A DNA stretch of 36,682 nt from a virus (lineage: Duplodnaviria; Heunggongvirae; Uroviricota; Caudoviricetes), in the IMG/VR virus record IMGVR_UViG_2609459792_000013. The stretch is one strand, 5' to 3'. The notes beneath the pieces are model-generated. The model was given only the letters and a program-made list of their open reading frames with translations, did not search any database and had not been told where the DNA came from. A program made the position numbers and the translations under genes. This document shows positions 4,801 to 26,538 of the stretch, in pieces (within the stretch, counting starts at the first letter, position 1; each line of letters opens with the position of its first letter).

Positions 4801-7211
4801 GTCATGCCGATATGAACAACTGCTGCGGCTTTAACGAAGCTGCCGCATCGTTCTCATGGAACAGCCCGAAAAAGGCCATTAACCCTTATCTGGACCCGGT
4901 GGAAGTTGCGCCGGTTTCTACGCTTTCAAACCTGATCACTCTGTATGCTGCCGATAACGAGCAGGAACAGCTGCGCCGTGAGGCGCTGAGTGATCAGGTC
5001 TGGGAGCGTTATTTCTTTAATGAATCCCGTGATCCTGTCCAGCGCGAAATGGAACAGGATAAGCTCATTAGTCGGGCAAAGCTGGCGCATGAGCAGCAGC
5101 GTTTTAATCCGGATATGGTCATTCTGGCGGACGTCAACGCCCAGCCTTCCCATATCAGCAAGCCGCTGATGCAACGTATTGAATACTTCAGCAGCCTGGG
5201 CAGGCCAAAGGCTTATTCCCGCTATTTACGTGAGACGATTAAGCCATGTTTGGAACGACTGGAGCATGTACGCGACAGTCAGCTATCTGCATCTTTTCGC
5301 TTTATGGCAAGCCATGAAGGGCTGGACGGCCTGCTGATCCTGCCTGAAATGAGTCAGGATCAGGTGAAACGCCTGTCCACCTTGGTAGCTGCGCATATGA
5401 GTATGTGCCTTGATGCCGCTTGTGGCGATTTGTATGCCACCGATGACGTTAAGCCAGAAGAAATCCGCAATACATGGGAAAGGGTGGCAGCGGAAACCCT
5501 GCGTCTGGATGTCATCCCGCCTGCGTTTGAGCAACTCCGTCGGAAAAGAAACCGCCGTAAACCCGTGCCCTATGAACTCATTCCGGGTTCGCTGGCGCGT
5601 ATGTTGTGCGCCGACTGGTGGTATCGGAAATTATGGAAGATGCGTTGCGAATGGCGGGAAGAGCAGTTGCGTGCAGTCTGCCTTGTCAGCAAAAAAGCAT
5701 CTCCTTATGTCAGCTATGAAGCCGTGATGCATAAACGTGAGCAGCGCCGTAAGTCGCTGGAGTTTTTCCGTTCTCATGAACTGGTGAACGAAGACGGCGA
5801 CACGCTGGACATGGAGGATGTGGTAAACGCCAGCAGCAGCAACCCAGCGCATCGCCGCAATGAGATGATGGCCTGTGTTAAAGGTCTGGAGCTTATCGCG
5901 GAAATGCGCGGTGACTGCGCCGTTTTCTACACCATCACCTGTCCGTCACGTTTCCATTCCACGCTAAACAACGGCAGGCCCAACCCAACCTGGACAAATG
6001 CGACGGTAAGACAAAGCAGTGATTATCTGGTCGGCATGTTTGCTGCATTTCGTAAGGCGATGCACAAAGCCGGATTGCGGTGGTATGGCGTGCGGGTGGC
6101 TGAGCCGCATCATGACGGTACAGTTCACTGGCACCTGTTGTGTTTTATGCGCAAAAAAGACCGCCGCACCATCACTGCATTACTGCGTAAGTTTGCCATC
6201 CGTGAAGACCGCGAGGAGCTGGGCAATAACACTGGGCCGCGCTTTAAGTCTGAGTTGATTAACCCGCGCAAAGGTACGCCAACAAGCTACATCGCGAAAT
6301 ACATCAGTAAGAACATTGACGGGCGTGGTCTGGCTGGCGAGATCAGCAAGGAAACGGGGAAATCCCTGCGTGATAATGCTGAATACGTTAATGCCTGGGC
6401 GTCTCTGCATCGTGTTCAGCAATTCCGCTTCTTTGGCATTCCGGGGCGTCAGGCTTACCGTGAACTGCGATTGCTGGCTGGTCAGGCGGCAAGGCAACAG
6501 GGGGACAAAAAAGCAGGTGCGCCGGTACTGGATAACCCGCGCCTTGATGCCATTCTGGCTGCTGCTGATGCTGGTTGTTTTGCCACCTACATCATGAAGC
6601 AGGGTGGCGTACTGGTTCCCCGCAAATATCACCTCATCAGAACTGCTTATGAAATCAACGAAGAGCCGACCGCCTATGGCGATCACGGCATTCGTATTTA
6701 TGGCATCTGGTCACCTATTGCAGAGGGCAAGATCTGCACTCATGCCGTGAAGTGGAAAATGGTTCGTAAGGCCGTTGACGTTCAGGAGGCGGCAGCCGAC
6801 CAGGGCGCTTGCGCCCCTTGGACTCGTGGCAATAACTGTCCCCTTGCTGAAAATTTGTACCAACAAGGGAAAGACAAATCAGCTGATGGAGATACCAGAA
6901 CGGATATCACCCGCATGGATGACAAGGAGTTGCACGATTACCTGCACAGTATGAGCAAAAAAGAGCGCCGGGAACTGGCAGCAAGGTTACGCCTGGTGAA
7001 ACCGAAACGGCGTAAAGACTACAAACAACGAATTACAGACCATCAGCGACTGCAGCTCGTGTATGAACTGAAGTCCAGGGGATTTGATGGCAGCGAGAAA
7101 GAGGTCGATTTACTGCTTCGCGGCGGCAGTATTCCGTCAGGAGCAGGCCTGCGTATCTTCTATCGGAACCAGCGTTTGCAGGAAGATGATAAGTGGCGAA
7201 ACCTGTATTAA
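4797..7211 (+). CDS. A: Rolling-circle replication initiator (P2 gpA-like)
   Basis: 804 aa; HUH-type motif [10 protein letters not shown] and Y-x3-Y active-site pair (YIAKY), as in P2 A. Start overlaps the Dam stop. Confidence 0.85.
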
Positions 7212-7303
7212 TTACGCGGGTTAACAATTCGTGCTCTTAATAATACCAGGCATATCAGGCTGATGAGCGTAAAAAAACGTTTTACATCAGTAAGATTATT
7301 ATA

Positions 7304-7323
7304 TACTGTAAATATAAACAGTG
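7304..7323 (+). promoter_or_regulatory. LexA (SOS) box overlapping a candidate promoter
   Basis: TACTGTAAATATAAACAGTG is a perfect CTGT-N8-ACAG with AT-rich spacer (CTGT 7306-7309, ACAG 7318-7321). -35 TTTACA (7281-7286) and, 17 bp later, -10 TACTGT (7304-7309) overlap it; AGGAGG RBS and ATG at 7364 follow. Confidence 0.65.
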
Positions 7324-7363
7324 GTTATGTATACAGTATTGCTTTGGTGTCATAGGAGGAAAG

Positions 7364-7552
7364 ATGCAGGACTATTTTTTGGAGTCTTTGAAGCTCCAGC
7401 GCATTGATTTTTTTCTTAAGCTTGTAGCGGCTAGTGAGTGTAGTGATGAAGAGAAGGGGCTGGCTCTGCAGTGGGTTTCAGAGCTGACTGATGAGTTGAT
7501 GGCGAAAATTCGTGCCCATGAATATAACCGTGTAATGGATCTTCCCGGTTAG
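7364..7552 (+). CDS. Small acidic protein (62 aa) under putative SOS control; Tum-like antirepressor position, function unknown
   Basis: Strong AGGAGG RBS; first gene after the LexA-box promoter; sits where 186 carries its LexA-controlled tum operon (A to cos). Confidence 0.6.
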   Translation: MQDYFLESLKLQRIDFFLKLVAASECSDEEKGLALQWVSELTDELMAKIRAHEYNRVMDLPG

Positions 7553-7563
7553 CAGCAGGGGCG

Positions 7564-7598
7564 TTGCTGGCGTGAGAACTAGATTCTCGCGTCAGCAA
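7564..7598 (+). other. 15-bp-stem hairpin between the 62-aa and 387-aa ORFs
   Basis: Arm 7564-7578 TTGCTGGCGTGAGAA pairs with arm 7584-7598 TTCTCGCGTCAGCAA (13 Watson-Crick + 2 G-U pairs), 5-nt loop; no following U-tract. Confidence 0.4.
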
Positions 7599-7722
7599 GG
7601 TCAACTAAGGATTGAAACAGAAAGCCCTTGAAAACAGTAGCAAGTTGCCTATTATCTACGCTGTATTTAATCGATGTCATTGGCTGTAATACCTTAAGTG
7701 ATATTGAAAGGCGGTGTGGGGA

Positions 7723-8883
7723 ATGGATCTGGCTAAAGTTGAAGAACGCGTCCGAAGAGTCATAGGGACAATGGAGTCTGCCGAGCTTGATGAATATTTT
7801 TGGGGTAAGCGCTCGGGTTTGGGAGACTCATTACCTCCGTATTATCTCGTTTATTTTCTTTTGGTAGATTTACTGAAATTTAAAAATCGTGGGGTTGATG
7901 AGAAGATTTCTTTTTCTATCCCAGTCCGGATTGATGGGACTGTCGTAATTATAGAACATCGTAAACTTGGTTTAGATATATTTATCAAGAGTGATGATGA
8001 TATAGAGCAAGCTAAAACTGTTTTGAGACATATTTGCGCAGGGGTTAAAGCTGCTACGAAATTTTTTGACTCGCTTGCAGACAATGCAGCAAAGACTTCA
8101 AATCTAAATGTTAATAACAATGCTAATTCTCTTTATGATAGGTTTTGCTATTTTTTAGAGCTATATAAACAGAAGCTTGATGAAGTTGCTGCTGGCCAAG
8201 AGTCTAAACTGGAAGTTGATAGTGAGTTTAAGTCTGATAATTTTTTCAGCCTGTTACAATCCACTTTTGAACAATCAAATAAGATAATTGAACTCCGAAG
8301 AGAGGCTATGTGGTTAGCAACGTCTGCAATTGAGTCATTTTTCAATTGGACCGAGCATGTTTTCATTCTTATTGCAATCTTGAAGGGTGAGATAAAAAAT
8401 GGGAATGATGTGGCTGATAAAGTTGGGAAAGAATGGGGGGAGAAATTCAAATTAGCCATTGATATTAACTCTTCCAGTCTAAAATCATTCTATGAACGTT
8501 TACTTATACTCAGAAAACAGGTGCGTAATTTTGTAGCCCATGGCGCCTTCGGTAAGGATGGGCAAGCATTGGAATTTCACTCAAGTGTAGGGGCTGTGCC
8601 ACTATTGCTGCCTCATCGAGAAAATAAAGAACGTTTCAAGTTTGGAAATGGTGTACATTTTTTGGCACCTGAAGCAATGCAATTAATTAACGATTTTCTT
8701 GAAAATTTGTGGCAGGGAGAACTGTCCCCAGCAAAAATTTATATTGAATCTGGATGTCCTTTAATACTATCTTACGTAACTAATGGAACCTATGCGGAGG
8801 CGATGAAATCAGAAAGGAATATGGACTTATTGGTTAATTACTTAACTCGTGAGATGGATAATGCCGCAAACATGGATTGGTAA
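7723..8883 (+). CDS. Cargo protein (387 aa), unknown function; candidate HEPN-like nuclease (R-N-x3-H motif)
   Basis: Long AT-rich ORF (ATG 7723; track start 7714 is a GTG) in the P2 tin/old slot. Motif LRKQVRNFVAHG matches the HEPN Rx4-6H signature; no Walker A motif seen. Confidence 0.75.
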   Translation: MDLAKVEERVRRVIGTMESAELDEYFWGKRSGLGDSLPPYYLVYFLLVDLLKFKNRGVDEKISFSIPVRIDGTVVIIEHRKLGLDIFIKSDDDIEQAKTVLRHICAGVKAATKFFDSLADNAAKTSNLNVNNNANSLYDRFCYFLELYKQKLDEVAAGQESKLEVDSEFKSDNFFSLLQSTFEQSNKIIELRREAMWLATSAIESFFNWTEHVFILIAILKGEIKNGNDVADKVGKEWGEKFKLAIDINSSSLKSFYERLLILRKQVRNFVAHGAFGKDGQALEFHSSVGAVPLLLPHRENKERFKFGNGVHFLAPEAMQLINDFLENLWQGELSPAKIYIESGCPLILSYVTNGTYAEAMKSERNMDLLVNYLTREMDNAANMDW

Positions 8884-9083
8884 ACTCTAGGTGCGGGTTA
8901 CAAACACACAAAAAATCTTCCTGAGTTAGGTGTTATCCCAACCCAAGGCTGTGTCAGGAAAACTTCATATGGCGCATGAGATCGCATGATAGTATGACGA
9001 TCGTTTTCGCTGATGCCAGCCTGAGCTGGCGGGCTGTTGCATATGTCATGCAGGCGCATGAAAACCACTGCATAAAGCGGGTA

Positions 9084-9102
9084 GGCGTGGCGGGGATACG
9101 AG
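9084..9102 (+). other. Putative cos (cohesive-end) site
   Basis: GGCGTGGCGGGGATACGAG: the first 13 nt match the 186/P2 cos 19-mer as I recall it (GGCGTGGCGGGGAAAGCAT / GGCGAGGCGGGGAAAGCAC). Lies in a GC-rich non-coding spacer upstream of the Q-P packaging genes. Confidence 0.5.
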
Positions 9103-9208
9103 CGCGCGGGATGACATAACAGATTGAATTGAAAAATATTGACTAAATGTAAAATGCGAAGGATATTTAGCCCCTCTATGAAGTTTTAGATATGGAAAAT
9201 GATAGGTT

Positions 9209-9499
9209 ATGAAAACGATATATAGCTATGATTACCAATACTTGCCTAAAGGGTCCACAAGACCAATTGATGACGGAGATATAGTAGGCTGTTCGTCAGA
9301 AGAAAATCCTTTTCTTCTACTTCCCAATGTAGGTGATTTTGTCTCTATATGTAATGACAATAGTCGGTCTTCGTTTAGTGGTATTGTTAAAACTAGATAT
9401 TTCACTTATACGAGAATAAGTGAGGAGTGCGTACAATGTTCAATTAATATTGTAGTTGCAGAATCTGATGTAGATTGGGGTACTCTTATTAAAGAATAA
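9209..9499 (+). CDS. Cargo protein (96 aa), cytoplasmic, unknown function
   Basis: AT-rich ORF between cos and Q; candidate promoter upstream (TTGACT at 9140-9145); no recognisable motif. Confidence 0.6.
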   Translation: MKTIYSYDYQYLPKGSTRPIDDGDIVGCSSEENPFLLLPNVGDFVSICNDNSRSSFSGIVKTRYFTYTRISEECVQCSINIVVAESDVDWGTLIKE

Positions 9500-9554
9500 T
9501 ATGGGGCGTCTGCGTAAGTGGGCGCTATTAAAATAAAATGGAATCTTGTAATGT

Positions 9555-10241
9555 ATGGTTAAATTTAATAATAACTTTGATTTTCCATTGGTAACAATAC
9601 TGACGGTGTTGCTATTTATATTGGCATATTTTTTTAAACTTGGTGAGGCCGTTTATTTTGGTTATCCAGCAATACTTATATCATTAGATTTAACGAGTGT
9701 TGCGAATATTTCTTTAAAGCTTTTTTTCTATTTTGGTAGTATTGTTATAGGTGTTTTTAATTTTATTTTGAATGATGGTGCGATTAAACTTAATAAAATT
9801 AAGTATGTTCTTTGGATTTTTATTGCCATAACAATATTTTCAGTTTTTTTAAGTTTTAAGAGGGGGGAGAAAGACTTAGTTAACTATCTTAATGGTGGTC
9901 TTTTTGGTATTTGTTCATGGTTGGTGGTAATGTCGTTGTTCAAAACATTTGAACGAAGTGGTGATTTGATTAATATAGATTTCGTATATGCCATATTAAC
10001 GGTTTTCTTTATGTCAGTTACTAGTTTTCTTGGAGGGATTAATTATCATAATCAGTTTGCATCTGTTCTATGGAAAACCTTGGATGGAAAAATAGTAGTT
10101 GGAGAATATAACGGCAGTTTTGTTTTAAAGAAATGCGTAGATGGCAAAGGGGTTTTTAGCTTTAGAGAGGTAAATGGTAGCGAATTTGTTGAGGTTGTAA
10201 ATTATGTGGAAGGGAAGTTTAATCCAAGGTGCAATAGATAA
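9555..10241 (+). CDS. Cargo membrane protein (228 aa), about five TM helices plus a roughly 60-aa C-terminal soluble domain
   Basis: Hydrophobic stretches LVTILTVLLFILAYFF, ISLKLFFYFGSIVIGVFNFIL, YVLWIFIAITIFSVFLSF, LFGICSWLVVMSLF, FVYAILTVFFMSVTSFLGGI; very AT-rich; ends 25 bp before the convergent Q stop. Confidence 0.7.
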   Translation: MVKFNNNFDFPLVTILTVLLFILAYFFKLGEAVYFGYPAILISLDLTSVANISLKLFFYFGSIVIGVFNFILNDGAIKLNKIKYVLWIFIAITIFSVFLSFKRGEKDLVNYLNGGLFGICSWLVVMSLFKTFERSGDLINIDFVYAILTVFFMSVTSFLGGINYHNQFASVLWKTLDGKIVVGEYNGSFVLKKCVDGKGVFSFREVNGSEFVEVVNYVEGKFNPRCNR

Positions 10242-10266
10242 AGGTGCCAGGGCACCTTTCAAATAA

Positions 10267-11298
10267 TTATTCAAGTTTGTAGGCGTCAAAACTGATAACA
10301 GTTTTACCTAACCATATATTCAATTCTTCAAATCTTTTTTGCAATGATGTTAGTTCATTTCTTACAAAAACATTACTCGCCTTCTCCACATCCCCAAACC
10401 CTCCAACATTATTAGGCATAATCCCCATCATTTGCGGCGGCACGCGGTGCGCAGCCATCATGTCATCCCGGCTCACGTTCTTGATATTCAAAAATTCATC
10501 CTTTGCCGCGACTTCTGACAGAGGAATAATCTGAAGCCCGTCCTTTTTGCCGTTAGGCGAGTACATAAACAGGTTGCGGAAGTTGCCTGGACCTTTGGCG
10601 CTTTTCATCGCGTTGCGGAGGTTGTTCACATCTTCCTGGTTCTGCGCGGCGTCGGTCATATACATGATGAAGCCAGCATGACTGCCGTTAATGTAATACT
10701 TTCGACGGAACAGCGTGGCGGACTCATTGAGCAGGGCGGACGGAATGGCAGAAAGATAGCCGGGCAAGCCGTAGATCTCCTGGTTAATGTCCGGTTCCAT
10801 CAGATGAAAAATGCTGCCTTTCGTGAACTGATATGGCTGGGTTGTCATACCGTATTGCACAAACCAGTAGGTATCCAAGTCTAACCCGCGTCGGGTGTAT
10901 TTTGCCAGCGCAGGCTCAAGGGCGATAACTTCACCGAAGCGGTTCGTGCGTTTCTCCAAGTAGGCGTTACCAAAAACCAAATAGTCCTGCACAAAACGCG
11001 AAAAAGCCTGCTGGCTGAGCAGCGGGTGAGGGATGTAGGTGCTGGTCAAAATATTGCATTTCACCGCAATCGGTGAGCTGTGATGCACGGCGGCGCGGAA
11101 GGTTCGTGCCAGCCCGTCAAAGCTGACGGGCGGCTCATACCAGCGATCCATCTGTACGCATTCCACATAGTCCAGCAGTTCGCGGCGGTCCAGAACAGGA
11201 ACGGGATCACCGAAGCTGAATGCTTCGGCTGAAGTCTGGCTTTTATGCTGGTTCTGGTTCGTCGACGCAGCGCGGTTCTTCTTACTCTTTCCCATCAA
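10267..11298 (-). CDS. Q: Portal protein (P2 gpQ-like)
   Basis: 343 aa, recalled P2 Q similarity; operon with P on the minus strand, start overlapping the P stop. Confidence 0.85.
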   Translation of the reverse strand: MMGKSKKNRAASTNQNQHKSQTSAEAFSFGDPVPVLDRRELLDYVECVQMDRWYEPPVSFDGLARTFRAAVHHSSPIAVKCNILTSTYIPHPLLSQQAFSRFVQDYLVFGNAYLEKRTNRFGEVIALEPALAKYTRRGLDLDTYWFVQYGMTTQPYQFTKGSIFHLMEPDINQEIYGLPGYLSAIPSALLNESATLFRRKYYINGSHAGFIMYMTDAAQNQEDVNNLRNAMKSAKGPGNFRNLFMYSPNGKKDGLQIIPLSEVAAKDEFLNIKNVSRDDMMAAHRVPPQMMGIMPNNVGGFGDVEKASNVFVRNELTSLQKRFEELNIWLGKTVISFDAYKLE

Positions 11299-13061
11299 AA
11301 AATCTCCACAATATTGCTGGCATTGGCGGACTCGCCCTGCAGCGGTTCGTTAAACAGTGCGTGCATTGTTGCCCAGGCCAGATCGGCATGGCTGGCTTCT
11401 TCGCTGCGGCTGGCTTCATAGGTCGGGCGGTTGCCGCTGGCGGTGGTGGCGCGACGGATTGCCATGAATGACTGCGCAATGTCGGTGTGTCCGGCGTCAA
11501 ATTCCAGGCGGCGGTGACTGATAATGTCGTAGGCCTTGAGTACCAGGGCGTTTTTAACGTTGGGGTTGTAGACAAACTCCCGGACGGCAGGAAAAAACGC
11601 TTTCACGTTCTCGTAAACCCCGTGACCGACGCCGGTCGAGTCGATGCCGATATAGGTCACGTTATACTGTTCGGTCAGTTTTTTGATGGCGTCAGCCTGG
11701 GCGCGGAAGTCCATTCCGCGCCACTGGTGACGCTCAAGAATGCGGAACTTACCGCCCTGCACGGCTGGCGGTGCCACCACCACGCATCCGGCGCTGTCGC
11801 CGTTCTGCGTACCTTTTGCCGGGTCATAACCGATCCACACTTCGCGCCAGCCAAACGGGCGCAGGGCCAGTGCATGAAAGTCGGTCCAGACTTCCCAGCT
11901 GTCCACCATGCACGCCTGCAGCTCGCTGAGCGGGAACACGGACGCGAGATCGTCCACGAATTCACACATCAGCAGGTTCTGGTATTCGTCCGGGCTGTAT
12001 TCCATGCGCAACTGGTCAAGGTCGAACAGGTTACAGCCGCCGCGCACCGCATCTTCCACGGTGACTATCTGGCGGTATTGCCCGTCTGCACACAGCAGGC
12101 CTGGAGCCAGATTGCTGTGGGACAGGTCGATGTCCACCTTGTCGGCTTTATTGCGCCCACGGTTGAATAGCGCACCGGACCAGAACGGATAAGCACTGTG
12201 TGTCAGGCTGGATGGCGTGGAAAAATAGGTTTGTCGCCATTTTTTGTGAATAGCCATACCGGAAGCCACTTTGCGCAGCTCCTGGAATTTCGGGATCCAG
12301 AAATATTCATCCAGATACAGGTTGCCGTGGTAACTCTGGGCCGTGCGGGCATTGGTGCCGAGGAAATACAGTGTGGCCCCGTTGGGAAGCACCATCGGAT
12401 CGCCTTTCAGCTCCACTTCCACTTCTTTGGCGAAGTCGATGATGTACTGCTTAAAGACGTGGGCCTGTGCCTTGCTGGCGGAAAGGAAAATCTGGTTACG
12501 TCCGGTAAGCAGAGCGTCAATCAGGGCTTCACGGGCAAAGTAAAAGGTCGCGCCGATCTGGCGTGACTTCAGCAGGTTGCGGATGCGGTTGGTTTTTCCG
12601 GCTTCCCACCAGTGGCGCTGGTAGTTGAACATGGAGGAATGGAAGATTTCTTCCAGCTTCTCAATCTGCTCATCGGTGAAAACATTCTTTTCCGGCTGAC
12701 GGCGCGGGCCTTTGTTGCGGTTGGCGACGTTAGGGTTTAAGTCGGCTTCGTTGCCGCCATTGTTAAACTTGCCGATCCGCGCGTGGCGTTCCGACTGGCG
12801 CGCCAGCAGGTCAATCTCTTTGAAATCTTTCCCTTCTTTGTGCTCCTTCATAATGAGCTGGCAGTAGCGTGCGGCGGTGGTGAGCTGCATCTGATCCAGC
12901 GGCCCATAGTCACCCCACTTGTCGCGTTTCTTCCAGCTGTGAACGGTTGCAACTTTCTCGCCCAGCATTTCAGCAATGCGGGCTACACGGTATCCCTGAA
13001 AGTACAGCAGCATGGCCTGCCGACGGGGATCGAGATCTGCGGGTGTCAGTGTGGTGTTCAT
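11295..13061 (-). CDS. P: Terminase large (ATPase) subunit (P2 gpP-like)
   Basis: 588 aa in the position and orientation of P2 P; an alternative start at 13013 is possible. Confidence 0.85.
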   Translation of the reverse strand: MNTTLTPADLDPRRQAMLLYFQGYRVARIAEMLGEKVATVHSWKKRDKWGDYGPLDQMQLTTAARYCQLIMKEHKEGKDFKEIDLLARQSERHARIGKFNNGGNEADLNPNVANRNKGPRRQPEKNVFTDEQIEKLEEIFHSSMFNYQRHWWEAGKTNRIRNLLKSRQIGATFYFAREALIDALLTGRNQIFLSASKAQAHVFKQYIIDFAKEVEVELKGDPMVLPNGATLYFLGTNARTAQSYHGNLYLDEYFWIPKFQELRKVASGMAIHKKWRQTYFSTPSSLTHSAYPFWSGALFNRGRNKADKVDIDLSHSNLAPGLLCADGQYRQIVTVEDAVRGGCNLFDLDQLRMEYSPDEYQNLLMCEFVDDLASVFPLSELQACMVDSWEVWTDFHALALRPFGWREVWIGYDPAKGTQNGDSAGCVVVAPPAVQGGKFRILERHQWRGMDFRAQADAIKKLTEQYNVTYIGIDSTGVGHGVYENVKAFFPAVREFVYNPNVKNALVLKAYDIISHRRLEFDAGHTDIAQSFMAIRRATTASGNRPTYEASRSEEASHADLAWATMHALFNEPLQGESANASNIVEIF

Positions 13062-13107
13062 GGCACAAACCTACAGCCTTGAATGAAGGCTTTCCCCGCC
13101 TGCGGTT

Positions 13108-13125
13108 TGTGTGGTAGTCGGTACA
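13108..13125. promoter_or_regulatory. Late-promoter activator dyad TGT-N12-ACA in the P/O divergent region
   Basis: TGTGTGGTAGTCGGTACA matches the dyad I recall as the Ogr/B-type late activator site (upstream of sigma70 late promoters). Centre is 87.5 bp from the O ATG and 55.5 bp from the P ATG. Confidence 0.55.
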
Positions 13126-13203
13126 AATACCGCGCATTGTTTCACTGCCCCCATCACCGCAACCATAAGGCTCCAGTAAGTTTTTTCTAACGGAGCACGG
13201 CTC

Positions 13204-14037
13204 ATGACAGTGAAAGCAAAGCGTTTTCGCATCGGGGTGGAAGGTGCCACCACCGACGGACGCGAAATCCAGCGTGAATGGCTGGAACAGATGGCAGCCA
13301 GCTACAACCCGGCGGTGTACACCGCGCTGATTAACCTTGAGCACATCAAGTCTTATCTGCCGGACAGCACCTTTAACCGCTACGGCAAGGTGACGGCGCT
13401 GTTTGCTGAAGAAATCACGGAAGGCCCGCTGGCGGGCAAGATGGCACTGTATGCCGACGTTGAGCCAACGGAGTCCCTGGTGGAACTGGTGAAAAAAGGC
13501 CAGAAATTATTCACCTCTATGGAAGTCAGCCCGAAGTTTGCAGATACGGGCAAAGCCTACCTGGTCGGCCTGGCTGCTACAGATGACCCTGCCAGTCTGG
13601 GCACTGAAATGCTGACATTCAGCGCCAGTGCAGCCCATAACCCGCTGGCAAACCGCAAGCAGAATCCTGCCAATCTTTTTACCGCTGCAGAGGAAACGGT
13701 GATCGAACTGGAAGAAGTCCAGGACGAAAAACCATCCCTGTTTGCCCGTGTCACGGCGCTGTTCACCAAAAAAGAGCAATCCGATGATGCCCGGTTCTCT
13801 GATGTGCATAAGGCCGTGGAGCTGGTCGCCACTGAGCAGCAAAACCTGAGTGCGCGCACCGAAAAATCCCTGTCTGAACAGGAAGAACGCCTGTCTGAGC
13901 TGGAGACAGCCCTGCAGGCACAGCTGACCGCCTTTAACGAACTGGTGGACAAGTTGAGCCATGAAGACAGCCGCCAGGACTACCGCCAGCGTGCAACAGG
14001 CGGTAACGCCCCCGCTGACACTCTGACCAATTGCTGA
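13204..14037 (+). CDS. O: Capsid scaffolding protein (gpO-like)
   Basis: 277 aa, first gene of the rightward late operon, acidic coiled-coil C-terminal half. Confidence 0.85.
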   Translation: MTVKAKRFRIGVEGATTDGREIQREWLEQMAASYNPAVYTALINLEHIKSYLPDSTFNRYGKVTALFAEEITEGPLAGKMALYADVEPTESLVELVKKGQKLFTSMEVSPKFADTGKAYLVGLAATDDPASLGTEMLTFSASAAHNPLANRKQNPANLFTAAEETVIELEEVQDEKPSLFARVTALFTKKEQSDDARFSDVHKAVELVATEQQNLSARTEKSLSEQEERLSELETALQAQLTAFNELVDKLSHEDSRQDYRQRATGGNAPADTLTNC

Positions 14038-17668: not shown

Positions 17669-17801
17669 TGGTGATCTGAACGCGTTGCTGGATGAAACGG
17701 AGGCTGCCTGGGCGGTCTGTGCAGACAAAGTGGACATGATTATTGCGTGTCAGGAGCGAAACAGTGAACAAACCACAATCCCTGCGCCACGCCCTCAATA
17801 A
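17511..17801 (+). CDS. o-spanin (Rz1/LysC-like lipoprotein), overlapping the i-spanin in another frame
   Basis: Lipoprotein signal with lipobox LTLSGC and a Pro-rich mature part; starts inside the i-spanin gene and extends past its stop. Confidence 0.7.
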   Translation: MRTRIYAAGLILLCLLTLSGCGNAPRSPEVQLTVSGCPRVTPCRLEQAAPRTNGDLNALLDETEAAWAVCADKVDMIIACQERNSEQTTIPAPRPQ

Positions 17802-18195
17802 AGCGGTGCCTTATGTCCGCAATAACCCGGACAAACTGCATCTGTTTGTGGATAACGGTTCGCTGGTTGCCACGGGGGCCAGCTCCATGTCGTGGGAGTA
17901 CCGTTACACACTGAACGCGGTGATTGAGGATTTCAGCGGCGACCAGAATCTGCTGATGGCCCCGGTTTTGCTGTGGCTGAGGGATAACCAGCCCGATGCC
18001 ATCAATAACCCGGCGTTACGGGAAAAGCTATTCACCTTTGAGGTGGATATTCTGCGCAACGATGTCTGTGATATCAGCCTGAACCTGCAACTGACGGAAC
18101 GTGTGCTGGTCAGCACTGACGGCAGTGTGTCGAGCGTTGAAGCTATAGCGGAACCTGATGCATCTGAAGAAATGTGGGCGGTGAAACGTGGCTGA
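17764..18195 (+). CDS. R: Tail completion protein R (gpR-like)
   Basis: GTG at 17764 with AGGAG RBS (track ORF starts at a TTG at 17743); called from recalled P2 R similarity and position. Confidence 0.8.
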   Translation: MNKPQSLRHALNKAVPYVRNNPDKLHLFVDNGSLVATGASSMSWEYRYTLNAVIEDFSGDQNLLMAPVLLWLRDNQPDAINNPALREKLFTFEVDILRNDVCDISLNLQLTERVLVSTDGSVSSVEAIAEPDASEEMWAVKRG

Positions 18196-18631
18196 ACTGC
18201 AGAAGGTGGACGACTGGCTGAGTGCTTTGCTGGCGAATCTGGAGCCAGCCGCAAGAAGCCGCATGATGCGCCAGCTGGCGCAGGAACTGCGCCGGACACA
18301 GCAGCAGAACATCAGGATGCAGCGCAATCCAGATGGCAGCAGTTATGAACCGCGCAGGGCAACAGCACGCAGCAAAAAGGGGCACATCAAACGTCAGATG
18401 TTTACAAAGCTGCGCACCTCTAAATACCTTCAAACTACCGCCAGCGCCGATTCTGCCAGCGTGCAGTTTGAAGGTAAGGTGCAGCGCATTGCACGCGTTC
18501 ACCATTACGGCCTGCGTGATCGCGTCAGTCGTCATAGTTTTAAAGTGAAATATGCGCAACGGCGTCTTCTAGGCGTTAATAAAGACATAGAAATTTGGGT
18601 TCGAAACACACTGAAGCACTGGCTTGTTTAG
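18188..18631 (+). CDS. S: Tail completion protein S (gpS-like)
   Basis: 147 aa, GTG start overlapping the R stop; position as in P2. Confidence 0.8.
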   Translation: MAELQKVDDWLSALLANLEPAARSRMMRQLAQELRRTQQQNIRMQRNPDGSSYEPRRATARSKKGHIKRQMFTKLRTSKYLQTTASADSASVQFEGKVQRIARVHHYGLRDRVSRHSFKVKYAQRRLLGVNKDIEIWVRNTLKHWLV

Positions 18632-18645
18632 TGCTTCAGTGTGTT
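18605..18645. other. Perfect 16-bp inverted repeat (9-nt loop) at the convergent S / cargo-gene junction
   Basis: AACACACTGAAGCACT (18605-18620) and AGTGCTTCAGTGTGTT (18630-18645) are exact reverse complements; spans the S stop codon; no clear U-tract on either strand. Confidence 0.4.
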
Positions 18646-18656
18646 AAAACAGAAGA

Positions 18657-20408
18657 CTATTGGTTGAATATGAAGCTGATAATATTTTCAGGAGTGAGCT
18701 CTATGTTTTTTTTATTAAGTTTTTGAATGTACATTTTATATTTCATTTCAACGTTTCGGAAGCCTTGCGCAACAGAAAGTATTTCTACAGGATGAGATGA
18801 AAGTTTTATTAAGGAGTTAATGACTGTATCTAGGTAGATGTGAGCATGTTCAACTAAAACATTTGTTTTTGATGGGGTTTTTCCAGTGTGAACTATCAAG
18901 TTTCTAGTTCTATATATTCTCCTAATTTGCCAGTTGATTCTTTCTGCATGATTTTTAAGTGCCTGATACATAGTATCAGTTGAGGAAATTAAATTGCTAA
19001 TATATTCAAATCTCTCTTTCAATAACGGAAATTGTGATAGTTCTATCTTAAACTGATTGATGCTAGGGGCATGTTCTTGCGAAGCAACAAGAATTACAAA
19101 TGATTTGGCTGCATCGCTATCTCCAATTAGTCTTAGAAGTGACATGGTTCGAGGATGATTCCATCGTTGTAAGTCTTTTATAAGATTCCTTACTAGGTCT
19201 TCAATATAATTCAGGTTTAAAAATGGTGTTAATGAATTAACGATATGTTCTATCGTGGATTGTTCTTCTTTTTTTGATTCGTCGGGGATGAGTGATTCAA
19301 TAGCAATCCATAAATTTAAAAGCTGATTTTCTACAGCATTTGTCTGTAGTGCCATTGAATGTAATTGTACACTTCTTATGAATTTATTGAAAGAATCCTT
19401 GCGCATTCTGAAATTATTCATGAATTGTTCGAGTCTTCTGCTTGCGTGTTCCTGAACCAGATCCTTGCAGCGGTGCATTGGGTTTATGCTGCTTCTTATA
19501 TTGATTTTTTCACCATTTTCACTAACTACAATGTTCTCTGCAGACCATGATGCTTCTTGCTTATGATGATAGAGAGAAAGCAAAGTTGATGCGAGCTTTA
19601 AGTTTCTTTCAGCTACCCTTCTAGCCGTGAATGGATCAAGTGCTTTAACATGCTTAACTAAAATAGTTCGTTGTTCATGATTATCGAAGAAATCTGTTTC
19701 ATTAATATTTTCGGGGGTTTCAAGAACAACCTCAATTTCTAATTGTGATAAGCATGGAGTAATATAACTAAAAGATTTGTCAGCATTGAAATAAACTGAA
19801 TATTCTTGTGTCTCTGAGGGGATGTTCTCTAGGAATGTAATAATCTCTTCATTTGAACTGATCTCTCGTTCTCTTTGGAAGAAATGTTTTTTTAGACTTT
19901 CCATCAAATATTCTTGACTTAATCCTTTTGATATTAGATGGGTAATCAACAGTCTTGTAAACTTTCGAATTTTATTTGGGTTGTATTCTGAAGTTATTGT
20001 AGAGCAAAGTTCACTGATGAGTTTGCTTTCATAATTACCAACATTAAGTTGAACTCTCAGTAATTCAAGAGTTATTTTTAGATTTTTATTTCCTAACTGA
20101 TTGTTTTGGAGTTGATCTAAAAATGAACCTAAAGGGTTTTTTAGAAGACTGATTGCGATGTCATCATTCTTAATATTTTTAGTTAATTCGTCAATGACGT
20201 GGGATATATGTGCGGGGCTTATGTTGCCTTTTTCTATATCATCGATTGTTGATATTGCTTCTATACATAAACTTGGAGTGTTCATTATAGAAGGTTTATA
20301 TGTACTATGGGTGTAATCAAAGAGAAGTTCCTCCATTAACTCGGTGAAATAAATAAGCGCAGTGCATTGTTCAATATGATTCCAGTTGTGTAGTCTTCTA
20401 AATTTCAT
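18657..20408 (-). CDS. Cargo protein (583 aa) antisense to the late operon in the S-V moron slot; candidate HEPN-like abortive-infection protein
   Basis: Very AT-rich ORF; ATG at 20408 (MKFRRLHNWNH...). The track TTG start at 20528 would overlap gpV and is rejected. C-terminal motif IRRIYRTRNLIVHTGK matches R-N-x3-H-x-G; no Walker A motif. Confidence 0.8.
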   Translation of the reverse strand: MKFRRLHNWNHIEQCTALIYFTELMEELLFDYTHSTYKPSIMNTPSLCIEAISTIDDIEKGNISPAHISHVIDELTKNIKNDDIAISLLKNPLGSFLDQLQNNQLGNKNLKITLELLRVQLNVGNYESKLISELCSTITSEYNPNKIRKFTRLLITHLISKGLSQEYLMESLKKHFFQREREISSNEEIITFLENIPSETQEYSVYFNADKSFSYITPCLSQLEIEVVLETPENINETDFFDNHEQRTILVKHVKALDPFTARRVAERNLKLASTLLSLYHHKQEASWSAENIVVSENGEKINIRSSINPMHRCKDLVQEHASRRLEQFMNNFRMRKDSFNKFIRSVQLHSMALQTNAVENQLLNLWIAIESLIPDESKKEEQSTIEHIVNSLTPFLNLNYIEDLVRNLIKDLQRWNHPRTMSLLRLIGDSDAAKSFVILVASQEHAPSINQFKIELSQFPLLKERFEYISNLISSTDTMYQALKNHAERINWQIRRIYRTRNLIVHTGKTPSKTNVLVEHAHIYLDTVINSLIKLSSHPVEILSVAQGFRNVEMKYKMYIQKLNKKNIELTPENIISFIFNQ

Positions 20409-20452
20409 ATTAATACCTTGTTTTGTGAAGCTTGAATTTACCTTTAGCGCAT

Positions 20453-20470
20453 TGTTTGTTGCTTCATACA
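20453..20470. promoter_or_regulatory. TGT-N12-ACA dyad between the cargo gene and V (late-promoter activator site candidate)
   Basis: TGTTTGTTGCTTCATACA, with flanking extended symmetry TGTTTG...CAAACA. Centre is 55.5 bp from the V ATG (20517) and 53.5 bp from the cargo ATG (20408). Confidence 0.45.
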
Positions 20471-20516
20471 AACATGGTTTGTTTGTGATCTCAAGTGTTT
20501 GATTAAGAATTTGAGA

Positions 20517-21095
20517 ATGAACGTACAACTCACGGAAATCATGCGCCTTATCACCAATCTGATCCGCACAGGGGTAGTCACCGAAGTGGACCGGGAAAAC
20601 TGGCTTTGCAGGGTGAAAACGGGCGAGCTTGAAACCAACTGGATCAGCTGGCTGACGCTACGTGCCGGAAATGCCCGGACATGGTGGCGACCATCGGAAG
20701 GTGAGCAGGTGGTGCTGCTGAGTCTGGGCGGCAATCTGGAGACCGCCTTTGCGCTGCCCGCTGTCTATTCGAATCAGTTCGCACCACCGTCGACGTCGGC
20801 GGACGCCTGCGTGACAGAACATCCTGACGGTGGCTGGTTTGAATACGAACCCGCCACCGGGCGCTGGTATGTCAGGGGCATCAAATCAATGGTCATTGAG
20901 GCCGCTGACAACATCACCCTGAAAACCAGTGAGTTTGTACTGGAGGCTGACCGCACGCGCATTAACAGTGAAGTGGTGATCAATGGTGGAGTTACCCAGG
21001 GCGGCGGAGCGATGAGTTCTAACGGGATCGTGGTTGATGCGCATCAGCATACTGGCGTCCTGAAAGGCGGCGATACAACCGGAGGCCCGGTATGA
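20517..21095 (+). CDS. V: Baseplate spike protein (gpV-like)
   Basis: N-terminus MNVQLTEIMRLITNLIRTGVVTEVD resembles recalled P2 V; an alternative start at 20541 is possible. Confidence 0.8.
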   Translation: MNVQLTEIMRLITNLIRTGVVTEVDRENWLCRVKTGELETNWISWLTLRAGNARTWWRPSEGEQVVLLSLGGNLETAFALPAVYSNQFAPPSTSADACVTEHPDGGWFEYEPATGRWYVRGIKSMVIEAADNITLKTSEFVLEADRTRINSEVVINGGVTQGGGAMSSNGIVVDAHQHTGVLKGGDTTGGPV

Positions 21096-22944: not shown

Positions 22945-24380
22945 GCACAAAATTTTATACCCTGCTGACGGATATTGGCGCGGCGAAACTTGCCAGCGCC
23001 GCCGCGCTCGGTGTGCCTTTAAAAATTACCCATATGGCGGTCGGCGATGGCGGCGGAACATTGCCAACGCCGGACGCAAAGCAGACAGCATTAGTAAATG
23101 AGAAACGCCGGGCTGCGCTGAATATGCTCTATATCGACCCGCAGAACAGCAGCCAGATTATTGCTGAACAGGTGATCCCTGAAAACGAGGGCGGTTGGTG
23201 GATACGTGAAGTGGGCCTGTTTGATGAGTCCGGGGCATTGATTGCCGTGGGCAACTGCCCGGAAAGCTATAAGCCGCAACTGGCTGAAGGCAGCGGGCGT
23301 ACCCAGACCGTGCGCATGGTGCTGATTACCAGCAGCACGGACAATATCACCCTGAAAATCGACCCTGCCGTAGTGCTGGCAACCCGCAAGTATGTGGATG
23401 ACAAGGTACTGGAGCTGAAGGTGTACGTAGATGACCTGATGGCAAAACATCTTGCTGCACAGGACCCACATTCACAGTACGCGCCAAAAGCCAGCCCGAC
23501 ATTTACCGGAACCCCCAAAGCGCCAACGCCAGCGGCGGGGAATAATACCACGCAGGTTGCGACCACTGCGTTTGTACAGGCGGCACTGACGGCCCTTATT
23601 AATGGTGCGCCAGCCACGCTGGACACGCTGAAAGAAATAGCCGCAGCCATTAACAATGATCCGAATTTCAGTACCACCATTAACAATGCGCTGGCACTAA
23701 AAGCACCGTTGTCGAGTCCGGCACTCACCGGAACGCCAACAGCCCCCACGGCGGCGCAGTCGGTCAACAATACACAGATTGCCACTACGGCTTTTGTGAA
23801 ATCGGCGATTGCAGGAATGGTGGGTTCTGCACCTGCTGCACTGGATACACTGAACGAACTGGCGGCGGCACTGGGGAATGATCCGAACTTTGCCACGACA
23901 ATGCTTAATGCGCTGGCAGGTAAACAACCGCTGGACAATACGCTTACCAATTTGAGTGGAAAGGATGTGGCTGGTCTTCTCGCATACCTTGGTTTGGGAG
24001 AAGCGGCAACGAGGAACGTCGGAACGGATACCGGGCAAGTACCAGATATGAGTAGTTTTACAACGGGGCACTCTGGAGCAGCAGACTGGCCGATTCCTAA
24101 ATCTGGATGGAGTAAGGGGCCGGAAGGGGTAATTACACAATGGGGTATTTTCGGTTTCCCCGTTGGACAGACAGGGACGAATGTTGTTTTCCCGCTACCT
24201 TTCCCCGCGCGGGTCGAATCAATTACACTGACAATGGCAGATATCCAGGAGTCTCTGCTTTCTCCAGCAACCATGCCTGCTTATGGAGTTAACTCAACTG
24301 GTACTTCAAGAACGGGTTTTACAGCCCGTATGTCAGGCGCCGGTGGGTTTAATCTTTGCTATATAGCGAAAGGGAGATAA
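22941..24380 (+). CDS. H: Tail fibre protein (gpH-like); C-terminal about 130 aa lie inside the invertible segment
   Basis: 479 aa with Ala/Thr-rich repeats (TAFVQAALTAL, TAFVKSAIAGM) typical of tail fibres. The hix-like crossover site falls at codons 350-354 (LGLGE). Confidence 0.8.
   Translation: MSTKFYTLLTDIGAAKLASAAALGVPLKITHMAVGDGGGTLPTPDAKQTALVNEKRRAALNMLYIDPQNSSQIIAEQVIPENEGGWWIREVGLFDESGALIAVGNCPESYKPQLAEGSGRTQTVRMVLITSSTDNITLKIDPAVVLATRKYVDDKVLELKVYVDDLMAKHLAAQDPHSQYAPKASPTFTGTPKAPTPAAGNNTTQVATTAFVQAALTALINGAPATLDTLKEIAAAINNDPNFSTTINNALALKAPLSSPALTGTPTAPTAAQSVNNTQIATTAFVKSAIAGMVGSAPAALDTLNELAAALGNDPNFATTMLNALAGKQPLDNTLTNLSGKDVAGLLAYLGLGEAATRNVGTDTGQVPDMSSFTTGHSGAADWPIPKSGWSKGPEGVITQWGIFGFPVGQTGTNVVFPLPFPARVESITLTMADIQESLLSPATMPAYGVNSTGTSRTGFTARMSGAGGFNLCYIAKGR
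23977..24002. other. Left recombination site of the invertible segment (hix/gix-like, inside H)
   Basis: TTCTCGCATACC TT GGTTTGGGAGAA. Its reverse complement shares 14 consecutive nt (TTCTCCCAAACCAA) with the right site; 15-bp identical core is 23989-24003. Confidence 0.6.
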
Positions 24381-24384
24381 CAGA

Positions 24385-24828
24385 ATGAATAAAGTTAAAA
24401 GTGTTTACAGCCCGTCCGAAAATGCAATCTACAACGCAGCGCTATATGAAAGTTATATCAAGGAGGGGACATGGCCGCAGGATGGTATTGAAATCAGCGA
24501 TGAGGATGCTGTCAGATTTAATGGGGGAAATAAGCCAACAGGAAAAATGCTGGGAATGGTTTCAGGGACCCTTGCATGGGTTGATGAGCCGCCGCTTTCA
24601 CCAGAACAGAAAATATCAGATGCAGAAAACATGAAAGCCACATTTCGTGCAAAAGCTGACAGTGAAATATCCTGGCGTCAGGATGCTGTTGATGCTGGTA
24701 TCGCAACTGATGAAGAAACTTCAACTCTCACCCAATGGAAGAAATACCGTGTGCTGCTGATGCGTGTTGATACATCAACAGCCCCCGATATTGAATGGCC
24801 TACACCTCCGGCAGTTCAGGCCAGATGA
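24385..24828 (+). CDS. G: Tail fibre assembly chaperone (gpG/Tfa-like)
   Basis: 147 aa directly after H; C-terminal DTSTAPDIEWP motif is shared with the minus-strand Tfa'. Confidence 0.75.
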   Translation: MNKVKSVYSPSENAIYNAALYESYIKEGTWPQDGIEISDEDAVRFNGGNKPTGKMLGMVSGTLAWVDEPPLSPEQKISDAENMKATFRAKADSEISWRQDAVDAGIATDEETSTLTQWKKYRVLLMRVDTSTAPDIEWPTPPAVQAR

Positions 24829-25402
24829 CATCCGGCGCGGTGCTGGTATCTGTTGCCGTCACCGCGTCAATGTAATCCAGCACGGCGTTAAGGCGGGTGG
24901 TTTCTGCCTGCGTCAGCCTCCGCCCGGCCTGTAATTTCAGCTGAATCAGACTGATGGAAGCCATTGCAGCATCAATCAGTGACTGGCGCTGTGCTTCTGC
25001 CGCGTCTACTGCGGCGCAATGCTGTGCCTCAGTATCGGTCACCCATTTCTCACCATCCCATTTATCGTATGGCGTTAACGGGGCGATAGTGGTTGTATTT
25101 TCGGGGTAATCACCCGGAGCTGTGATTTCTTTGGCGTCTCCCGTTTCGGTGTTATAGACGATTTCACCGCGATGGTCTGGCACATATTCCCATGAATTTA
25201 AATCCACAGAGCGACAAATTGCATAACCAGCCTTGTATATGCCAGGTGCCTCCAGACAGGAAAATGCCGGAATACCGACACCCACAGCAAGATATTCAGT
25301 TGATGTGGAAATATATTCCCGTATTTCGCCATCATAGTTATAGACGGTAATATTCCCCGCCTTTGTAGCAATAAACTCGCTATTTAATACAGCGTTATCC
25401 AT
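24800..25402 (-). CDS. Alternative tail fibre assembly chaperone (Tfa'), for the inverted orientation
   Basis: 200 aa; C-terminus DTSTAPDVIWPELP; its 3' end overlaps the plus-strand tfa 3' end by 29 bp (convergent). Confidence 0.75.
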   Translation of the reverse strand: MDNAVLNSEFIATKAGNITVYNYDGEIREYISTSTEYLAVGVGIPAFSCLEAPGIYKAGYAICRSVDLNSWEYVPDHRGEIVYNTETGDAKEITAPGDYPENTTTIAPLTPYDKWDGEKWVTDTEAQHCAAVDAAEAQRQSLIDAAMASISLIQLKLQAGRRLTQAETTRLNAVLDYIDAVTATDTSTAPDVIWPELPEV

Positions 25403-25893
25403 TATGCAGCCCTCACGATATAGTTAAATGCAATATTCCGTGGACGGGTTTCATTTATCCCATATGCTGTTGTTCTCTGATTCCCGACAAAATATCCATT
25501 TGGATTAGAAGATACAGAATAATCATCAAAATCAAGTGGGCTATCAGCACCCGGCGTCAGGCTTGCAATATATCCTCTTCCCATAACTTCTGATGCTGGT
25601 ATTTCTTTTGTACGATAATCACTAACTCTGAAGAGCTGCCCTTGGTGGGTGTGTGATTCCACTCCTCCATTCTGAAGACTTAGCAAGGCACGTACAGCAT
25701 CAATACCACGCCCGTCATCCCAGCCACGAATAAATTCACCGCGTAAATCAGGCAATTTATTTGTCGGGTAAGCCTTTGCCAGTTCCGGGTATTCTTCAGC
25801 AGAAAAAGCTGCACCGTTGCATTTCAGCCAGCCTGTTGGCGGTGTGGCTGAAGGCCATGGAACAGGCACACCAACAGGTAATGCAGAGCCTTC
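25402..25893 (-). CDS. Alternative tail fibre C-terminal (receptor-binding) module H', start-less; expressed only after inversion fuses it to the constant gpH N-terminus
   Basis: Open frame runs from the right hix-like site (codons GLGE in the same phase and with the same nucleotides as gpH 351-354) to the stop at 25402. The track ORF's first 17 codons lie at or beyond the crossover and are not a real start. Confidence 0.6.
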   Translation of the reverse strand, partial: EGSALPVGVPVPWPSATPPTGWLKCNGAAFSAEEYPELAKAYPTNKLPDLRGEFIRGWDDGRGIDAVRALLSLQNGGVESHTHQGQLFRVSDYRTKEIPASEVMGRGYIASLTPGADSPLDFDDYSVSSNPNGYFVGNQRTTAYGINETRPRNIAFNYIVRAA

Positions 25894-25916
25894 TCCCAAA
25901 CCAACGTTTATGAAAA
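25891..25916. other. Right recombination site of the invertible segment (hix/gix-like)
   Basis: TTCTCCCAAACC AA CGTTTATGAAAA resembles the hix/gix consensus TTATCAAAAACC AA GGTTTTTGATAA; about 55 bp upstream of the invertase start. Confidence 0.6.
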
Positions 25917-25971
25917 TGCAGAGATAATGACTAACTGGCATCATCTCCGGTTTTTATTCAGGGGGATGCTC

Positions 25972-26538
25972 ATGCTTATTGGCTATGTACGCGTGTCAAC
26001 AAATGACCAGAACACCGATTTGCAACGTAATGCACTGAACTGCGCGGGATGTGACCGGATTTTTGAGGACAAAATCAGTGGCACTAAGTCCGACAGACCG
26101 GGGCTTAAAAAACTGCTCAGGACACTATCGGCAGGAGACACGCTGGTTGTCTGGAAGCTGGACAGACTGGGTCGCAGTATGCGGCATCTTGTTACGCTGA
26201 TAGAAGAGTTGCGCCAGCGTGGTGTGAATTTCCGAAGCCTGACTGACAGTATTGATACCAGTACCCCAATGGGCCGTTTCTTTTTTCATGTCATGGGGGC
26301 TCTGGCTGAAATGGAACGCGAACTGATAGTTGAACGAACCAGGGCAGGGCTGGCTGCAGCTCGTGCCAAAGGCAGAGTAGGTGGACGCCGTCCTAAGTTG
26401 ACCACCGAACAGTGGGCACAGATTGGGCGTTTACTCGAGGCCGGAGAATCAAGACAGCGTATTGCACTGATTTTTGATGTGGGCGTTTCTACCATTTATA
26501 GAAAATTTCCGGCAAATAAGAGCAGTGAATCCCCCTGA
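25972..26538 (+). CDS. Serine site-specific DNA invertase (Gin/Hin/Pin/Cin family)
   Basis: ATG at 25972 gives MLIGYVRVSTNDQNTDLQRNAL..., near-collinear with Mu Gin as I recall it, including the catalytic Ser in YVRVS and a C-terminal HTH. Track ORF begins upstream at 25927. Confidence 0.9.
   Translation: MLIGYVRVSTNDQNTDLQRNALNCAGCDRIFEDKISGTKSDRPGLKKLLRTLSAGDTLVVWKLDRLGRSMRHLVTLIEELRQRGVNFRSLTDSIDTSTPMGRFFFHVMGALAEMERELIVERTRAGLAAARAKGRVGGRRPKLTTEQWAQIGRLLEAGESRQRIALIFDVGVSTIYRKFPANKSSESP

Follow-up and report, generated by a model that had tools for sequence, protein, structure and literature searches.

A probable Ec2ApeA allele as anti-phage cargo between genes S and V of a P2-like prophage

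Here we describe apeA, a gene that lies between the tail gene S and the baseplate spike gene V of a P2-like (Peduoviridae) prophage. The window, meaning the whole stretch of DNA that was analyzed, comprises the 36,682 nucleotides (nt) of IMG/VR record IMGVR_UViG_2609459792_000013 (Caudoviricetes). A 97.6% identical stretch in Escherichia coli USDA-ARS-USMARC-50748 is part of a complete P2-like prophage situated between rcdA and ybjL, and the ybjL/ybjM flank is also where the window ends. From its sequence, apeA is very probably a functional allele of the gene for Ec2ApeA, an RNase of known structure, carried next to ybjL as single-gene anti-phage cargo.

The Antisense Gene and Its Product

The S-V slot of the window prophage holds apeA as its sole gene, read antisense to gpR, gpS and gpV, which were recognized as its flanks with Pfam (Table 1). 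The initial annotation, which had described a single antisense gene of 583 amino acids (aa) opposite the late operon, was correct on this point. The region has one long open reading frame (ORF) on the minus strand, 18657-20528, which encodes 623 aa when read from a TTG codon. The first ATG, at 20408, gives a coding sequence (CDS) of 583 aa that is intact, is preceded by a Shine-Dalgarno sequence, and starts where the RefSeq start of a near-identical gene and the first residue of the PDB construct would place it. A 623-aa product from the TTG at 20528 was rejected, as it would overlap the start of V and its late promoter, pV, and is unsupported by annotation or by the PDB construct. The interval 18657-20516 that was first reported runs from the apeA stop codon to the base preceding the V ATG (20517), and so comprises the gene and its upstream gap. 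The fraction of G + C (GC) in apeA is 0.33 (0.28 at third codon positions) compared with 0.576 in the adjacent part of S and 0.573 in that of V, which bears out the earlier remark that the gene is much more AT-rich than its surroundings.

In a PDB sequence search, 581 of the 583 residues (99.7%) were shared with Ec2ApeA of E. coli 2-156-04_S4_C1, the protein of entries 9HXI, 9HXB, 9HXD, and 9HXE-H. The two differences are D210 (E in the PDB protein) and T528 (A in the PDB protein). Both D210 and T528 are the consensus residues of a 15-member homologue alignment, and RefSeq WP_089454933 differs from the window protein by T528A only. Weaker matches over the full length were found with Ec3ApeA (E value 2.3e-133), Ec1ApeA (1.9e-12) and Ec4ApeA (2.6e-10), while the PADLOC model for ApeA matches residues 20-534 with an E value of 2.4e-12. 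The sequence thus places the window protein in the ApeA anti-phage defense family, one that is already known and characterized. The gene had initially been regarded as unassignable to a named family, a view that gives way to the full-length PADLOC match and to the near-identity with Ec2ApeA. The accompanying proposal of an uncharacterized single-protein defense holds in its second half, a single-protein abortive HEPN RNase defense, and fails in its first, since cryo-electron microscopy (cryo-EM) structures and a mechanism of Ec2ApeA are published.

Not all databases recognize the protein. The family search proposed at the outset gave a divided result, with the PADLOC match on one side and nothing significant in Pfam on the other; NCBIfam and PHROGs scans likewise gave nothing significant. 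The Pfam model HEPN_Apea does not match the window protein even at E ≤ 1, and the two models that are listed, DUF7625 and MauJ, are both below threshold. Given the near-identity to a solved ApeA, the miss is attributable to the model's limited reach and is no argument against membership. RefSeq labels the same 583-aa CDS "hypothetical protein." An ATPase of the OLD/AAA type was also considered and rejected: a pattern search for Walker A ([AG]x4GK[ST]) found no such P-loop in the protein, in agreement with the initial annotation, and no ATPase family of Pfam, PADLOC or NCBIfam matches it.

Through its identity to the cryo-EM structures, the protein has the four-helix HEPN fold with R-x4-6-H on helix 3 and a composite site formed by the dimer. 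The motif lies in the peptide IRRIYRTRNLIVHTGK (residues 495-510), which contains R502, N503, H507, and G509 in the arrangement R502-N503-x3-H507-x-G509. Taken alone, an R-x(4-6)-H pattern carries little weight and is not above chance, because it occurs eight times in the window protein. The R502 instance is validated by its invariance across homologues and by the published R502A mutant, which lost defense in the 99.7% identical Ec2ApeA, so that the HEPN-like motif singled out at first is indeed the catalytic one. The window protein retains all 30 residues named in the Ec2ApeA paper, of which 3 are catalytic, 15 belong to the pocket, 4 to the loop and 8 to the interface. The pocket residues are T36, Y37, S40, I41, M42, E74, R148, and R152 in the N-terminal domain and Y401, Y469, H487, R490, Q494, H521, and Y525 in the HEPN domain. 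The ring interface is likewise complete, with the oligomerization residues Q548, R551, and E554 of the HEPN domain accompanied by Q99, R336, E115, F96, L116, and I112; the decamer as such is known from the PDB protein only. In an alignment of 15 homologues with 35-90% identity, R502, N503, H507, G509, and 11 pocket residues are invariant; T36, Y37, S40, E74, R148, and R152 do not vary in these homologues. By its residues the pocket is in the Ec2-type state that binds the activating ligand described below, the roles of the residues being taken from the paper.

Table 1. Positions in the window of apeA, of the parts of its product, and of the surrounding slot.
Feature	Position	Strand	Remarks
apeA CDS	18657-20408	-	583 aa + stop; Ec2ApeA allele; 581/583 vs PDB 9HXI; PADLOC ApeA
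Shine-Dalgarno AAGG of apeA	20416-20419	-	7-nt spacer to ATG at 20408; from sequence
N-terminal domain (residues 1-198)	19815-20408	-	limits from Ec2ApeA paper; half of ligand pocket
Mid domain (residues 199-309)	19482-19814	-	limits from Ec2ApeA paper; holds D210
Regulatory loop, residues 331-341 (R334, M335, R336, K337)	19386-19418	-	conserved in window; rearrangement per paper
HEPN_ApeA domain (residues 335-583), split HEPN with insertions	18660-19406	-	limits from paper
Catalytic HEPN motif R502-N503-L-I-V-H507-T-G509	18882-18905	-	invariant in 15 homologues; R502A published
gpR	17743-18195	+	Pfam P2_Phage_GpR
gpS (virion morphogenesis / tail completion), left flank	18188-18631	+	Pfam Phage_tail_S 6.6e-39
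gpV (baseplate spike), right flank, first V-operon gene	20517-21095	+	Pfam Phage_base_V 6.5e-18 + Apex; RefSeq start equivalent
Inverted repeat, perfect 14-bp	18606-18644 (18606-18619 / 18631-18644)		between convergent S and apeA
Ogr/Delta activator site of late pV, TGTTTGT-N8-ACAAACA with TGT-N12-ACA	20453-20474	+	center 55 nt before V ATG
AT-rich exchangeable cassette: last 33 S codons, hairpin, apeA, apeA upstream region, pV	18532-20516		homology limits + GC

From Ec2ApeA to the Window Allele

The mechanism of Ec2ApeA was described by Juozapaitis et al. (bioRxiv 2026, 10.64898/2026.01.26.701840) as that of a HEPN anticodon nuclease that assembles into a doughnut-shaped decamer. The monomer consists of an N-terminal, a Mid and a split HEPN domain, the last of which has HepT as its closest structural relative. 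Pairing of two HEPN domains creates a composite active site, and five such dimers form a ring whose active sites face a channel of the size of a tRNA; the interface mutant R551E is dimeric and inactive. The N-terminal and HEPN domains enclose a pocket, well removed from the active site, that binds 5'-phosphorylated deoxydinucleotides with a 3' G (pdNG), and the mutants Q494Y, R490A, H487A, Y401F, and Y37F lose both ligand binding and defense. Upon binding, the loop of residues 331-341 rearranges and the anticodon loops of tRNAs are cut. Protection was strong against several phage groups, such as Vequintavirus, Justusliebigvirus and Guernseyvirinae. It was seen at a low multiplicity of infection (MOI) and failed at a high one, which indicates abortive infection. 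The catalytic-dead mutant R502A loses toxicity along with defense. Overexpressed Ec2ApeA is toxic without phage through endogenous pdCG, a background that is eased by co-expression of a deoxydinucleotide-specific diDNase. The authors infer, without direct demonstration, that pdNG originates from the degradation of host DNA by phage nucleases (Juozapaitis et al., 10.64898/2026.01.26.701840). HepT and Csm6/Csx1 share with ApeA the HEPN four-helix core and an R-x4-6-H site at the dimer interface, and Csm6/Csx1 are likewise allosterically activated by a ligand derived from nucleotides. ApeA differs from them in its large insertions, its N-terminal and Mid domains and its rings, and in that its ligand is a product of DNA breakdown instead of a dedicated second messenger.

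The window protein has the same length, start, and catalytic, pocket, loop and interface residues as Ec2ApeA, from which it differs only at positions 210 and 528; the prophage context is not described in the Ec2ApeA paper. Since every published functional residue that was checked is conserved, the window allele would be expected to act like Ec2ApeA. Infection by a phage would lead to breakdown of the host DNA and release of pdNG; the pocket would bind it, loop 331-341 would shift, and anticodon loops would be cleaved. In a lysogen, apeA may be expressed from a promoter that overlaps the divergent pV/Ogr region, and it would thereby shield the lysogen, and hence the prophage, from lytic phages that degrade host DNA.

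Several points weigh against this account. The mechanism comes from a single preprint and from plasmid expression under a T7 promoter in BL21 rather than native expression from a prophage, and the published phenotype is that of the Ec2ApeA protein, not of the window allele. For the rise of pdNG during infection its authors offer inference and no measurement, nor did they capture a ternary complex with tRNA. In addition, a sigma-70-like promoter with at least 8 of 12 matches was not found within the 212 nt upstream of apeA, and the blindness of Pfam HEPN_Apea to the window protein, set out above, belongs on the same side. With these points considered, a functional defense allele of the Ec2 type is still by far the most probable reading.

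A different mode of action has been reported within the same family. Ec1ApeA and Ps2ApeA cleave the genomes of single-stranded RNA (ssRNA) phages non-abortively, with the same conserved pocket as sensor (Drobysheva et al., 10.64898/2026.03.20.713152), and the window protein, being an ApeA like Ec1ApeA, might act mainly by cutting invading phage genomic RNA directly, with no death of the cell. Ec1ApeA, the original ApeA (Gao et al., 2020; WP_000706972; PDB 9HXN), has the same three domains, a HEPN R-x4-H motif, a decameric ring and anticodon-loop cleavage. However, its relation to Ec2ApeA is distant and its similarity to the window protein only remote (E value 1.9e-12 in the PDB search), and its pocket is different (D75, D509, K41, T506) and is not activated by deoxydinucleotides (Juozapaitis et al., 10.64898/2026.01.26.701840). 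Drobysheva et al. themselves state that deoxydinucleotides are sensed by Ec2ApeA but not by Ec1ApeA. Ec1ApeA differs at the pdNG-contacting positions E74, R490, S40, and H487, all of which are in the Ec2 state in the window protein, and the failure of Ec2ApeA at high MOI is abortive behavior. Direct cutting of phage RNA is for these reasons improbable as the mode of defense here, and would at best be an additional activity.

Distribution and the S-V Cassette

The gene is rare. Among 5426 complete E. coli genomes, 11 carry it, always on the chromosome, next to gpV, and labeled "hypothetical protein," and the exact protein occurs on 24 contigs that were examined, in the S-V context in all of them. 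When 50,697 phage records were searched with the gene by megablast, none matched, and the gene has so far been seen only in prophages inside bacterial assemblies. A peptide-pattern scan of 185,579 species-representative genomes found no relative, the representative E. coli being without the gene and a single-sequence query reaching only close relatives. At E ≤ 1e-5 the wider family comprises 350 proteins; of these, 120 were listed, all without a precomputed Pfam domain. In Enterobacter roggenkampii (77% identity), Pantoea agglomerans (55%), Klebsiella pneumoniae (41%) and E. coli (P0071, 41%), relatives are found in P2-like prophages, where they are antisense and flanked by S and V, and each of these four S-V relatives has TGT-N12-ACA 55-56 nt before V. 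The P0071 protein is Ec3ApeA, by near-identity to PDB 9HXJ. It is about 41% identical to the window protein over its full length. The E. coli P2-like prophage that carries it has the gene antisense in the S-V slot, like the window, and an Ogr site that precedes V by 55 nt; the cassette is shorter, with 79 nt between the start codons of apeA and V. Ec3ApeA forms a dodecamer, in contrast to the Ec2ApeA decamer, and protects only moderately (Juozapaitis et al., 10.64898/2026.01.26.701840). Relatives in Burkholderia, Vibrio and Lysobacter (35-41% identity) are found outside P2-like phages, two of them adjoining Eco57I-type restriction-modification (RM) or SIR2-HerA genes.

The low GC content had been taken as a sign of recent horizontal acquisition. 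This is doubtful, given that P2-like prophages of four genera carry relatives, with identities of 77%, 55%, and 41%, in this slot and orientation. Low GC therefore looks more like a long-standing property of a cassette resident in the slot than like a mark of recent arrival.

One assembly contains a decayed copy of the prophage (GCA_048105135.1, locus 3132-13340). With gpV directly adjoining ybjL, this copy has lost the tail genes that follow V. It also lacks the genes for the small terminase, capsid and scaffold, and has kept apeA, S, R and those for lysis. This could represent domestication of a defense gene by the host.

The retention of apeA where tail and capsid genes were lost would fit addiction as well as domestication, and apeA could accordingly be read as selfish, toxin-like cargo or as an inert, decaying moron with no active defense in the native lysogen. 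The toxicity of overexpressed Ec2ApeA in the absence of phage, the lack of an identified promoter in the sigma-70 scan and the presence of the gene in so few E. coli genomes all point in that direction. Against it, the ORF is intact and constrained, with catalytic and pocket residues invariant over 35-90% identity, the near-identical Ec2ApeA has published protection against many phages, and the slot, with its one gene, offers no antitoxin partner. We consider such a role very improbable compared with active defense by an Ec2-type RNase.

The surroundings of apeA follow the plan of P2. The P2 annotation gives, in order, S, a putative rho-independent terminator of the O operon, the nonessential antisense gene orf30, the activator site and the start of pV, so that the initial comparison with the orf30 moron slot between S and V was well founded. 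Transcription from P2 pV starts at the V start codon, and the annotated activator site is centered 55.5 nt before it. Five distinct slots that carry ApeA, as well as the empty one of phage 500465-1, have an Ogr-type motif 55-56 nt before V. At the other end of the window slot, the stop codon of S falls at the loop/stem junction of a hairpin formed by the inverted repeat, whose folding energy is -27.6 kcal/mol (z -5.2) on the plus strand and -27.2 kcal/mol (z -6.6) on the minus strand. P2 has its putative O-operon terminator annotated at the same place. The hairpin probably acts as a terminator of the O operon and apeA or as a 3' stabilizer; a role in termination is only inferred, because no U-tract follows it on either strand. 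A scan for consensus promoters and terminators found nothing in either intergenic gap.

The limits of the exchangeable unit were drawn by comparison with 500465-1 (empty slot), Cartapus (a 176-aa antisense ORF) and Kp4865-2 (a 503-aa sense ORF). Homology to these related Peduoviridae ends near 18531, so that the last 33 codons of S fall outside it, and sets in again at exactly 20517. Within these limits GC is 0.39, 0.36, 0.33, and 0.315 in successive parts as opposed to 0.57 outside. From the homology limits and the low GC across 18532-20516, the exchangeable unit includes the C-terminus of S, the hairpin, apeA and a private pV. The last 33 codons of S, an essential tail gene (18532-18631, plus strand), have a GC of 0.39 compared with 0.576 in the rest of S and are not homologous, at the nucleotide level, to S of closely related phages. 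With these codons in the cassette, an exchange of cargo at the slot would therefore also swap the C-terminus of S.

The position of apeA between two late transcription units, where it overlaps the pV control region, might suggest a HEPN protein serving the phage's own cycle, for example in the processing of late transcripts, a role that we judge almost negligible in probability, as the slot is empty in viable relatives such as 500465-1 and filled by unrelated genes in P2, Cartapus and Kp4865-2, as P2 orf30 is annotated nonessential, and as more distant apeA relatives sit in non-phage defense islands beside SIR2-HerA or Eco57I-type RM genes.

The apeA and V start codons are 79-114 nt apart across the loci compared, so the apeA promoter must overlap the pV/Ogr region. 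This spacing, with the Ogr site lying over the apeA leader or promoter, makes it conceivable that late transcription shuts the gene off. We propose, tentatively and as something more likely wrong than right, that the Ec2/Ec3 branch has long resided in the S-V slot of P2-like phages of enterobacteria and moves as a cassette together with its own S C-terminus, hairpin and pV, in which Ogr-activated late transcription and convergent read-through from the O operon could switch apeA off during lytic growth of the prophage itself. If this were true, a suicide RNase would be armed in lysogeny and disarmed during the carrier phage's own growth, an idea that is absent from both ApeA preprints.

Other Cargo and the Place of ApeA Among Prophage Defenses

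The S-V slot carries different cargo in other phages. P2 orf30, R18C ORF16 and Cartapus gp14 share the slot and the plan of S, terminator, cargo, Ogr site and leaderless V. P2 orf30 (440-1225 of its own locus, minus strand, 261 aa) and Cartapus gp14 (1607-2137 of its locus, minus strand, 176 aa) are antisense like apeA, and R18C ORF16 lies between V and S; the proteins are unrelated and of unknown function. In Kp4865-2 the slot holds an ORF in the sense orientation (1701-3212 of its locus, plus strand, 503 aa) with weak, sub-threshold P-loop/AAA matches. PADLOC and Pfam gave no assignment for P2 orf30, Cartapus gp14 or the Kp4865-2 ORF, which could be further unrecognized defense genes.

Three other regions of the window prophage deserve mention. 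The canonical P2 defense hotspot between the replication gene A and the portal gene Q lies at 7150-10300, is AT-rich (GC 0.25-0.40) and holds three plus-strand ORFs of unknown function (7714-8883, 9209-9499, 9555-10241). The 389-aa ORF has no match in Pfam, PADLOC, PHROGs, NCBIfam or the PDB sequences, and those of 96 aa and 228 aa match nothing but PHROGs of unknown function. An otherwise 96-98% identical prophage (locus L001) has other cargo between A and Q, namely DinI, a hypothetical protein and a P-loop NTPase. This A-Q hotspot is a better candidate for an uncharacterized defense system than the gene between S and V. Further along, an invertible tail-fiber segment occupies 23977-26538. 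Its cix/gix-like inverted repeats (23977-24003 and 25890-25916) bracket an alternative fiber C-terminus and tail-fiber-assembly genes (24385-24828, plus strand; 24800-25402 and 25402-25944, minus strand), and a serine invertase (Resolvase and HTH_7) follows at 25927-26538. The segment would give a P2-like prophage host-range switching in the style of the Mu G segment. In the early region, a D12-class (Dam-like) N6-adenine DNA methyltransferase (3883-4800, plus strand; Pfam MethyltransfD12, 1.2e-76) scores in PADLOC as an orphan methyltransferase (3e-111) and probably serves the prophage as a methylase for regulation or against restriction.

In P2-like phages three moron regions are recognized, and the S-V position is one of them (PMC6823313). 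A preprint from 2026 that deals with P2/P4 hotspots mentions a late-gene defense hotspot "downstream of GpL," and "ApeA" is absent from that preprint and its supplements; Rousset et al. (2022) have HEPN_Apea proteins only in the supplementary tables that cover the P4 and P2 hotspots. The word "prophage" does not occur in either ApeA preprint (10.64898/2026.01.26.701840, 10.64898/2026.03.20.713152), and in the ApeA and P2-hotspot literature we found no statement that Ec2ApeA or Ec3ApeA is cargo of the S-V slot. Placing them there is a small contextual addition and not a new system. The gain in gene function is also small, because publications already cover this protein along with its structure, catalytic motif and activating ligand. 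As Pfam, NCBIfam, PHROGs and RefSeq labels all miss this branch of ApeA, surveys of defense in P2-like phages may undercount it. That two experimentally validated ApeA proteins, Ec2 and Ec3, are cargo of one late-operon slot of P2-like prophages puts ApeA among the prophage-borne defenses that act in competition between phages, and it raises the question of how the carrier phage avoids triggering the RNase in its own lytic growth.

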